Notes: generated from the letters alone by a model not told the origin. A DNA stretch of 64,000 nucleotides from Escherichia coli (GCF_044324785.1 NZ_CP172127.1); one strand, 5' to 3'; shown: positions 9,090 to 9,985, counted from the stretch's first letter. Made by a program: numbers and translations.

Positions 9090-9338
9090 TTATTGCATAT
9101 GTCTTAGCTCCACTGAAGTTTTGATTTTATATGGGTTGCCTTTTACCTCAATAACACGATGAGGATCATTTTTTAGTTCTTCCGCAATCTTCCGTAATTT
9201 TCTAACAGCTGAACTGCGGTGTTTATAACGGTAAGTTACAGTTTCTTTTCTGTGCAATACCTCATCATTGTGGAACTTAGTCAAAACCATGACGACTTCA
9301 AACCTGACGCCGTTGTGTGCAACCATAATCTGCTTCAT
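9090..9338 (-). CDS. hypothetical small protein (82 aa)
   Basis: Start chosen at the internal ATG (MKQIMVAHNG...) because it forms an ATGA overlap with the stop of the upstream methylase gene (+ strand tcat at 9335-9338). Confidence 0.4.
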   Translation of the reverse strand: MKQIMVAHNGVRFEVVMVLTKFHNDEVLHRKETVTYRYKHRSSAVRKLRKIAEELKNDPHRVIEVKGNPYKIKTSVELRHMQ

Positions 9339-9985
9339 GCTGCACGCTCCCGTCCCTGGTTGTCTGTTGGTGACAGCGGAGCATTGCTGAATGCATTTGT
9401 TAATCCGCCAATATCCAACGCGTATCCGGGGTGTAGTTGCACTGCCGGGTCTTCGCACTGATTACCCCAAACATCGAAGCCATGAGACGTCTGGCGGGCG
9501 AACAGTTCAATGCGAGAAACATCGCCTAACAATTGCACAAGTTTTTCACGAACGACATCTGGTTTTCTTGAATGCTCAAGCCGCGGTGCGGTAAATGACT
9601 GAACGATCCCTGCATTAATGCGCGGAGGTAGTTTTCCCTTAACTGCAAACAGGCAATCTTCACTATTGGCGCGAGTCATGTGTCCCATACCCATAACCAG
9701 TTTATCTGGTTGTCGACTACCACATTTTATCCACGTGAAGCCCTTCATGGTCATCAGACGGAACCCCCAGGCTTCAACAACTTTTAGTGCTTCGAGTGGT
9801 TGTGTTGGCACCCACCACATGGCCAACAGACAGTTTTCATCGGCCAAATCCCACACAGGAAGGCGGCAGATATCCATCACACTCATAACCGGATATTTAA
9901 AACCGGCACCGCGATTACCATCTGCGGCTTTGTCCCGGTATACCCAGGGTGGATCTGCATAGATTAGTGTGTATTTCTTAGTCAT
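9335..9985 (-). CDS. DNA N6-adenine methyltransferase, MT-A70 family (orphan)
   Basis: N-terminus MTKKYTLIYADPPWVY carries the DPPW catalytic motif; 216 aa; no adjacent restriction endonuclease. Confidence 0.8.
   Translation of the reverse strand: MTKKYTLIYADPPWVYRDKAADGNRGAGFKYPVMSVMDICRLPVWDLADENCLLAMWWVPTQPLEALKVVEAWGFRLMTMKGFTWIKCGSRQPDKLVMGMGHMTRANSEDCLFAVKGKLPPRINAGIVQSFTAPRLEHSRKPDVVREKLVQLLGDVSRIELFARQTSHGFDVWGNQCEDPAVQLHPGYALDIGGLTNAFSNAPLSPTDNQGRERAA

Follow-up and report, generated by a model that had tools for sequence, protein, structure and literature searches.

The gene for an N6-adenine methyltransferase of the MT-A70 family (positions 9335–9985, minus strand; 216 aa) and the 82-aa open reading frame (ORF) that follows it (9090–9338, minus strand) are located in a phiV10/epsilon15-like (Uetakevirus-type) prophage integrated beside guaA in the chromosome of Escherichia coli. 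All positions refer to the window, which is the entire stretch of 64,000 nucleotides (64 kb) that was analysed. The methylase is of the phiV10 gp33 type, as assigned by Pfam, PADLOC and identity to phiV10. Both genes belong to a leftward early operon on the minus strand, which consists of a PD-(D/E)XK recombination exonuclease (11563–12384), RecT (10685–11566), an AlpA-like gene (10387–10635), a small regulator of the PerC/ANR family (9978–10277; Pfam PerC, E = 6e-7; phrog_868, E = 6e-62), the methylase, the 82-aa ORF and, after a gap of 324 bp, an AntA/AntB-type antirepressor (8115–8765; Pfam AntA, E = 8e-28). The integrase gene (6831–8081) lies on the plus strand. The stop of the PerC-family gene overlaps the start of the methylase by 8 nt (9978–9985); its product is basic (pI 9.5) and is listed from a GTG at 10277, and the annotated 88-aa form of phiV10 corresponds to an ATG at 10244.

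A promoter-like sequence on the minus strand (TTGACA-17-AATTAT; 12869–12897), found by consensus scan after the repressor-gene terminator (12968–12949), is a candidate for the early-left promoter, and its position parallels the layout of phiV10. Since the promoter/terminator scan yielded no more sites than it did with shuffled sequence, the assignment is positional only. The scan revealed no convincing internal promoter in the methylase operon.

The methylase, whose N-terminus reads MTKKYTLIYADPPW, matches the Pfam profile MT-A70 (PF05063) over its full length (E = 3e-22; 79.8 bits at a cut-off of 23.9; profile positions 1–172 of 172), with residues 5–176 of the protein covered by the match, and also the PADLOC model MTase_II (PDLC03262, a Type II methyltransferase model; E = 5.6e-77). 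The catalytic motif IV, DPPW, is encoded at 9944–9955 (minus strand; residues 11–14, read from the sequence as GATCCACCCTGG). It is invariant in an alignment of eight phage homologues, aligns with the DPPW of MTA1, and is situated near the N-terminus, which is the motif order of class beta. The first-pass annotation, which had recognised an MT-A70 enzyme with a DPPW motif, was correct on this point. At its end, the domain contains an ELFAR...WGN segment (RIELFARQTSHGFDVWGNQ), which aligns with the 'LEIFAR' of MTA1 and in which IELF, R and WGN are invariant among the eight sequences. All catalytic motifs are invariant in this alignment, and the ORF is intact. A loop at residues 85–100 varies among the relatives; that of the methylase is close to the Stx/M.EcoGV type.

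An AF2 model of the methylase was of moderate quality only (pLDDT 65.5; core 70–88). The top matches of this model in a Foldseek search were MTA1 and METTL3 (E ~1e-10, TM ~0.55), which also ranked first by sequence among the solved structures (phmmer; MTA1, E = 3e-13; METTL3, E = 3e-6), and the predicted fold is of the MT-A70/METTL3 type. The modelled structure leaves DNA and RNA undivided as substrates, as the nearest folds are those of MTA1 (DNA 6mA) and METTL3 (RNA m6A). Both MTA1 of Tetrahymena and Oxytricha, which methylates DNA at ApT, and human METTL3 have DPPW and ELF(A/G)R...WGN in common with the methylase. However, they depend on an inactive paralogue and on modules or subunits that bind nucleic acids (PMC7544214), whereas the phage methylase is a bare core of 176 residues with a poorly modelled tail.

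This tail is an acidic C-terminal extension (pI 4.4) past the MT-A70 domain that comprises approximately residues 177–216 (9335–9454, minus strand) and lies outside the Pfam match. In the AF2 model, the pLDDT is below 50 at model residues 193–215, i.e., the last 23, and block means range from 29 to 45 from model residue 190 onwards. With 12 variable amino acid sites among its 40 residues, compared to 15 among the 176 of the domain, the tail is less constrained than the domain. The same type of tail is present in the window methylase, in phiV10 and in Tyrion. A search for co-variation of the tail with a partner gave no clean result for any single neighbour, and in Tyrion two additional small genes separate PerC and the methylase.

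The methylase is under purifying selection, as documented by a dN/dS of 0.12–0.18 and by the distribution of the variable nucleotides of its domain over the three codon positions (13/4/41), with a strong third-position bias. Together with the intact ORF, the invariant catalytic motifs and the 536 complete genomes in which the gene is present in full length, these values speak against the possibility that the methylase is an inactive passenger, either silent or decaying, which we regard as improbable. Such a passenger would have precedents in M.EcoGI and M.EcoGII, which like the window methylase are orphan, prophage-borne adenine methylases of class beta from E. coli; they are thought to be switched on only in lytic development and are unexpressed in lysogens (PMC5778455). 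It would also be in agreement with the lysogen methylomes consulted (Forde et al.; PMC6602927), in which no new motif is attributed to homologues of M.EcoGV. However, a gene that is silent in the lysogen may still be expressed in lytic growth. M.EcoGII was dismissed as a relative, because it is not an MT-A70 enzyme but has 349 aa, a DPPY motif and a central target-recognition domain; MT-A70 does not appear in the paper that describes it (PMC5778455), and there is no sign in the window methylase of a non-specific activity like that of M.EcoGII.

No restriction-endonuclease or other defence domain was detected when 30 prophage ORFs were searched with Pfam and PADLOC. This set contained the terminase and tailspike genes, the genes of the early operon and the non-structural ORFs from 90 aa upwards. 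Within these 30 ORFs, the methylase stands as an orphan, as the first-pass annotation had held when it found no partner restriction enzyme nearby. It is surrounded by PerC, AlpA, RecT, the exonuclease, the 82-aa ORF, AntA and the integrase, and no restriction endonuclease gene is adjacent to it. It is hardly conceivable that the methylase is the modification enzyme of a restriction-modification system and that one of its neighbours encodes the cognate, unrecognised nuclease. The placement of the family under the Type II methyltransferases by PADLOC and the presence of several prophage ORFs without a family match would fit such a system, but these ORFs gave no match to a nuclease or defence model, and every immediate neighbour is otherwise identified. 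Moreover, the genes on either side are readily swapped from phage to phage, which would not be compatible with a toxic nuclease as the partner.

The methylase gene is present with a nucleotide identity of at least 95% in 537 of 5,426 complete E. coli genomes, where it is annotated as 'MT-A70 family methyltransferase'; one complete genome contains a copy that is 100% identical. Its neighbours in the RefSeq annotation of these genomes are a PerC-family regulator and a DUF1382 protein, a serine/threonine phosphatase or a hypothetical protein. In phage phiV10, the corresponding protein is gp33 (PhiV10p33; YP_512288.1), annotated as adenine methylase or 'DNA methyltransferase', which has an amino acid identity of 97.7% to the window methylase over 216 residues. 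The two loci agree in the overlapping PerC-family gene upstream, the operon, the integrase-proximal position and the ATGA at the methylase stop. They differ in what follows, which is a DUF1382 gene in phiV10 and the 82-aa ORF, an sRNA-Xcc1-like element and AntA in the window. Relatives of phiV10 include TL-2011b, the O157 typing phages 9 and 10, PAS61 and ZX5. The methylase is thus already known as a widely distributed and annotated prophage gene with studied relatives at 83% identity, and its identification is accurate but ordinary.

The methylase and the 82-aa ORF overlap by the four nucleotides ATGA (9335–9338, minus strand), in which the stop codon TGA of the former (9335–9337) and the start codon ATG of the latter (9336–9338) are combined. 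A Shine-Dalgarno-like GGGAG (9347–9351, minus strand) lies 8 nt before this ATG, within the last codons of the methylase, and a GGAG-type element precedes the ATGA also at the junctions in phiV10, Tyrion, the Klebsiella phage and SPC32N. The ribosome-binding site and the start context of the downstream gene are therefore provided by the 3' end of the methylase gene. The overlap itself had been correctly described in the first-pass annotation and had been taken to imply coupled expression. Translational coupling from the methylase to the 82-aa ORF is plausible from the arrangement of these elements, but a specific partnership does not follow from it; coupling, if present, says nothing on shared function. 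Overlaps of 4 nt between start and stop codons are the commonest type of junction throughout the prophage (~10 of ~32), and three of the seven junctions of the methylase operon are ATGA overlaps. As such overlaps are the local norm, the ATGA of the methylase is not special. Their prevalence had been missed in the first-pass annotation, as had the location of the genes on the minus strand and the 8-nt overlap of PerC and methylase.

The ATGA also marks a mosaic boundary with phiV10. Megablast identity to phiV10-type phages (~98%) ends at 9330–9334, just before the ATGA, and the homology that continues through the 82-aa ORF and AntA was found only in phage HEMP4 and 18 complete E. coli genomes. 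A cassette of ~1.25 kb (8082–9334), which contains the 82-aa ORF, the sRNA-Xcc1-like element and AntA, stands where phiV10 has its DUF1382 gene. The junction was surveyed in viral contigs with a methylase of at least 98% identity, of which 80 were fetched and 76 could be parsed. The ATGA at the methylase stop is conserved in all 76 loci. It is followed by a DUF1382 gene in 45 of them, by the gene of a 219-aa protein in 25 (a position annotated as serine/threonine phosphatase by RefSeq in related genomes) and by the 82-aa ORF in six. More distant loci, in Enterobacter phage Tyrion, Klebsiella phage ST512-KPC3phi13.3 and Salmonella phage SPC32N, show the same plan, with a methylase that ends in ...AA, a GGAG-type element and the ATGA, behind which lie further small genes that are again unrelated. 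Because the overlap is invariably present with three unrelated genes downstream, it looks like a conserved docking junction at which cassettes are exchanged, and not like the mark of a dedicated partnership.

The 82-aa ORF is a swappable cassette gene and encodes a strongly basic protein (pI 10.2, net charge +9), which matches phrog_9805 from end to end (E = 2e-56). This match and a homologue with 55% identity and 34 invariant positions in an unrelated element show that the ORF is a real gene. Its product has no match in Pfam, NCBIfam or PADLOC. The protein is almost an ORFan. A word-indexed search of 5.8 billion proteins returned a single cluster, and in an exhaustive HMMER search, 1.84 billion representatives yielded two true matches. 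A third HMMER match, to a repetitive protein of 755 aa, is probably spurious. The sole distant homologue (P0002; 72 aa) is encoded in a P4-like element whose other genes include a primase, an integrase and a repressor-like protein, and in which there is no MT-A70 gene. A single-sequence AF2 model of the 82-aa protein (pLDDT 48) was too poor for a fold search. Close copies of the ORF differ by six non-synonymous and one or two synonymous changes, and the resulting omega of 0.8–1.6 is underpowered, with only 7–8 differences.

It would nevertheless be conceivable that the methylase and the 82-aa protein form a dedicated pair of an enzyme and a specificity or regulatory subunit. The ATGA overlap with its Shine-Dalgarno sequence, the high pI of the small protein, as expected of a nucleic-acid binder, and the frequent need of MT-A70 enzymes for partners (PMC10810198; PMC7544214) are in line with such a pair, which we nonetheless consider very improbable. 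Conserved co-occurrence of the two genes was not found, with the 82-aa ORF in just six of the 76 loci with near-identical methylases and unrelated genes at the same ATGA in the others, and only ~18 of ~537 methylase-bearing complete E. coli genomes carry the ORF. Moreover, the methylase, including its tail, is the same whatever its neighbour, as shown by its identity to phiV10 gp33, and the few changes among the copies of the ORF give no clear indication of purifying selection, albeit with the limited power stated above. Since its only distant homologue occurs in an element without an MT-A70 gene, we treat the 82-aa protein as a putative independent accessory gene product and not as a subunit of the methylase.

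The closest relative with a biochemical characterisation is M.EcoPA8orf6770P (gp5), the MT-A70 enzyme of the Stx2a prophage phiPA8 (Gong et al.; PMC10810198), to which the window methylase is identical in 155 of 187 residues (83%; residues 1–187; E = 4e-124). On its own, M.EcoPA8orf6770P shows hardly any activity in vitro, be it on RNA or on DNA, and dam- DNA is no exception. It binds PNB-2 (gp6; 76 aa), which is encoded directly upstream, at a ratio of 1:1. The resulting complex prefers 16S rRNA and 30S subunits, and the methylase gene raises spontaneous prophage induction and virulence in a DPPW-dependent manner (PMC10810198). The two systems share the MT-A70 core with DPPW, the location in the integrase-proximal early-left region and a small gene that overlaps the methylase start. 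They differ in the identity of this small gene, which encodes PNB-2 in the Stx phage and a PerC-family protein in the window, and in the C-terminal tail, which beyond residue 187 has nothing in common with that of the Stx phage in either the pairwise or the eight-sequence alignment. The preference for 16S rRNA was shown for the holoenzyme with PNB-2 only.

An RNA methyltransferase comparable to M.EcoPA8orf6770P–PNB-2, which would act on the 16S rRNA of the host and tune spontaneous induction, perhaps with the PerC-family protein as its partner, is therefore the main rival among the explanations for the window methylase. The high identity to the Stx2a-phage catalytic subunit, the properties of that enzyme with and without PNB-2, and the heteromeric nature of all solved structural relatives (MTA1–MTA9–p1–p2 and METTL3–METTL14) are points in its favour, as is the PerC-family gene upstream, which encodes a basic protein and in 75 of the 76 loci shares 8 nt with the start of the methylase. 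However, neither PNB-2 nor PNB-1 has a counterpart anywhere in the 64-kb window (best tblastn E values of 0.8 and 0.6, respectively). PerC is unrelated to PNB-2 by family assignment, with matches to different Pfam and PHROG families, and its adjacency to the methylase is not conserved beyond the close relatives, as one or two genes intervene in Tyrion, the Klebsiella phage and SPC32N. The C-terminal 27 residues of the STEC-type enzyme, which were proposed to be needed for the complex with PNB-2 (PMC10810198), are absent from the window methylase, where the alignment ends at residue 187 and a different tail follows. By the reasoning of Gong et al., variants without the STEC-type tail lack PNB-2 (PMC10810198), and the rRNA holoenzyme would accordingly not be anticipated in the window. 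We therefore regard an RNA-directed role with a different partner as unlikely, though it deserves serious consideration. More speculative, and in our view a long shot, is a second type of phage MT-A70 holoenzyme, in which the acidic, lineage-specific tail would recruit the PerC-family protein and direct the enzyme to a new RNA or DNA target. If this were true, prophage induction or host gene expression would be influenced in ~10% of E. coli strains.

Several relatives of the methylase are specific for GATC. M.EcoGV of E. coli O104:H4 is described by Gong et al. as highly similar to M.EcoPA8orf6770P and as methylating GATC when overproduced; they suggest that this methylation may be an effect of overexpression (PMC10810198). 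Homologues of M.EcoGV are listed as GATC-specific by Forde et al., with the specificity determined by PacBio sequencing (PMC6602927). For p32, the MT-A70 protein of Serratia phage BZS1, the same specificity was established by digestion with MboI and DpnI in a dam- host (Bujak et al.; PMC7556043), and M.EfaBMDam of Tn1549 is cited as the GATC-specific prototype of the MT-A70 group (PMC7556043). The gp35 protein of phage HK639 is 75% identical to BZS1 p32 (PMC7556043). Like the window methylase, p32 and gp35 are phage-borne orphans of the same family that are encoded in the integrase-proximal part of the early-left region. The identity of the window methylase to HK639 gp35 is 45%, and both possess a 'PAVQLxPG' segment after the domain; HK639 gp35 differs by an insertion of 24 residues in the loop at ~90–97 and by a short tail that ends in TEAA. 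Beyond HK639 gp35, the relation to the GATC enzymes runs through M.EcoPA8orf6770P and its described likeness to M.EcoGV (PMC10810198). With an identity of only 45%, the specificity is not simply transferable, and because the loop at residues 85–100 and the C-terminal tail differ among the relatives, that of the window methylase could be different.

The 83% identity to the M.EcoGV-like Stx enzyme, the existence of GATC-specific relatives, the absence of PNB-2 and the replacement of the tail lead us to favour methylation of GATC. That the methylase is a stand-alone, Dam-like DNA methyltransferase that would be active during lytic development has, in our estimation, an even chance of being correct. 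A finding that runs counter to this reading is that the purified homologue of the Stx phage is nearly inactive on DNA and prefers 16S rRNA in the presence of PNB-2 (PMC10810198). The frequency of GATC in the prophage (observed/expected 0.92; flanks, 0.85 and 1.11) is unremarkable and uninformative. In the methylome of a lysogen, a GATC mark set by the prophage would be masked by the Dam methylase of the host.

Judging from gene order, the methylase, as one of the last genes of the leftward early operon, would be made upon derepression at induction or infection. Methylation of GATC might then maintain the phage DNA in a fully methylated state as it replicates and protect it from enzymes that cleave GATC in its unmethylated form. 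The conserved last codons of the methylase, which supply the Shine-Dalgarno sequence and the ATGA, would probably bring about coupled translation of whichever gene lies downstream, and unrelated cassette genes appear to have been swapped exactly at the ATGA, namely DUF1382, the phosphatase-like gene, or the 82-aa ORF with the sRNA-Xcc1-like element and AntA. The account as a whole, i.e., an orphan methylase of the phiV10 type that methylates GATC in the lytic phase and ends in a generic ATGA with exchangeable cassette genes, is in our opinion probably correct, if by no means secure.

The first-pass annotation had offered the usual interpretation of orphan phage methylases, namely protection of the phage genome from host restriction or an epigenetic role. 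This generic reading should better be replaced by two alternatives, Dam-like methylation of GATC or partner-directed methylation of RNA. The gene usually carries the label of a DNA methylase that protects the phage, yet a relative with 83% identity from an Stx phage is reported to act on 16S rRNA together with a partner and to increase induction of the toxin phage, and others are Dam-like. The phiV10-type enzyme, which is present in about one-tenth of the complete E. coli genomes, is a candidate GATC or RNA methylase. Likewise, where genes of a phage operon overlap in an ATGA, this arrangement is not evidence of a functional pair; at the methylase it marks a conserved docking point for swapped accessory genes.

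The orphan MT-A70 adenine methyltransferase gene of the phiV10-like prophage is preceded by a gene for a small regulator of the PerC/ANR family (window 9978-10277, minus strand; Pfam PerC, E = 6e-7), which overlaps the methylase start and whose match to the NCBIfam model ANR_neg_reg falls short of the model cut-off. A PerC-family gene accompanies the phiV10-type methylase at 75 of 76 loci (viral contigs with a methylase at least 98% identical) and in RefSeq annotations as well. The interval between PerC gene and methylase is occupied in Salmonella phage SPC32N by another variable insert, a 355-aa gene annotated as 'DNA-sulfur modification protein' (L006, 437-1504), the last 4 nt of which overlap the beginning of that phage's MT-A70 methylase gene. 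Its product carries a DGQHR motif and appears DndB-like by eye.

The methylase of Enterobacter phage Tyrion, which has the phiV10-type tail, is flanked on either side by small-protein genes (L004, 1284-1511 and 2145-2351; 75 and 68 aa), both with overlapping start/stop codons. By eye, the two proteins look like winged-helix DNA binders, and to that extent they recall the winged-HTH prediction for PNB-2, the 76-aa partner of a Stx-phage MT-A70 enzyme. The methylase of E. coli A357 (NZ_CM163381.1; L002, 6636-7367) contains an in-frame 81-bp tandem duplication that repeats 27 residues, VVEAWGFRLMTMKGFTWIKCGSRQPDK, and yields a protein of 243 aa, the rest being near-identical to the window-type enzyme; the duplication could be a true variant or an assembly artefact.

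The window encodes a PD-(D/E)XK (DUF3799) exonuclease and RecT in two separate genes that meet at an ATGA overlap (10685-12384, minus strand), whereas phiV10 has a single gene of 1761 nt annotated as 'RecE-RecT fusion' (L001, 5355-7115).

The sole diverged homologue of the 82-aa protein encoded next to the methylase has 72 aa and is located in a P4-like or satellite-like element on a Logan contig (SRR6185888; L011, 1109-6014). There its gene follows those for an integrase and for a 353-aa protein whose C-terminus is repressor-like, and is itself followed, in this order, by three small ORFs, a DUF4222 gene and a primase gene. In the window, a full-length match to sRNA-Xcc1 (Rfam RF02221; 8806-8895, minus strand; 64.8 bits, E = 1e-11; gathering score 53) falls within the 324 bp that separate the 82-aa ORF from the AntA antirepressor gene (start at 8765), with a promoter-like TTGACA-18-CATACT upstream of the match (9017-8988). 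An element of the sRNA-Xcc1 family has been reported 5' of an ORF6N-domain gene in APSE phages (PMC7313666). Antirepressor-type cassettes may recurrently carry the sRNA-Xcc1 element as a leader or regulatory RNA.
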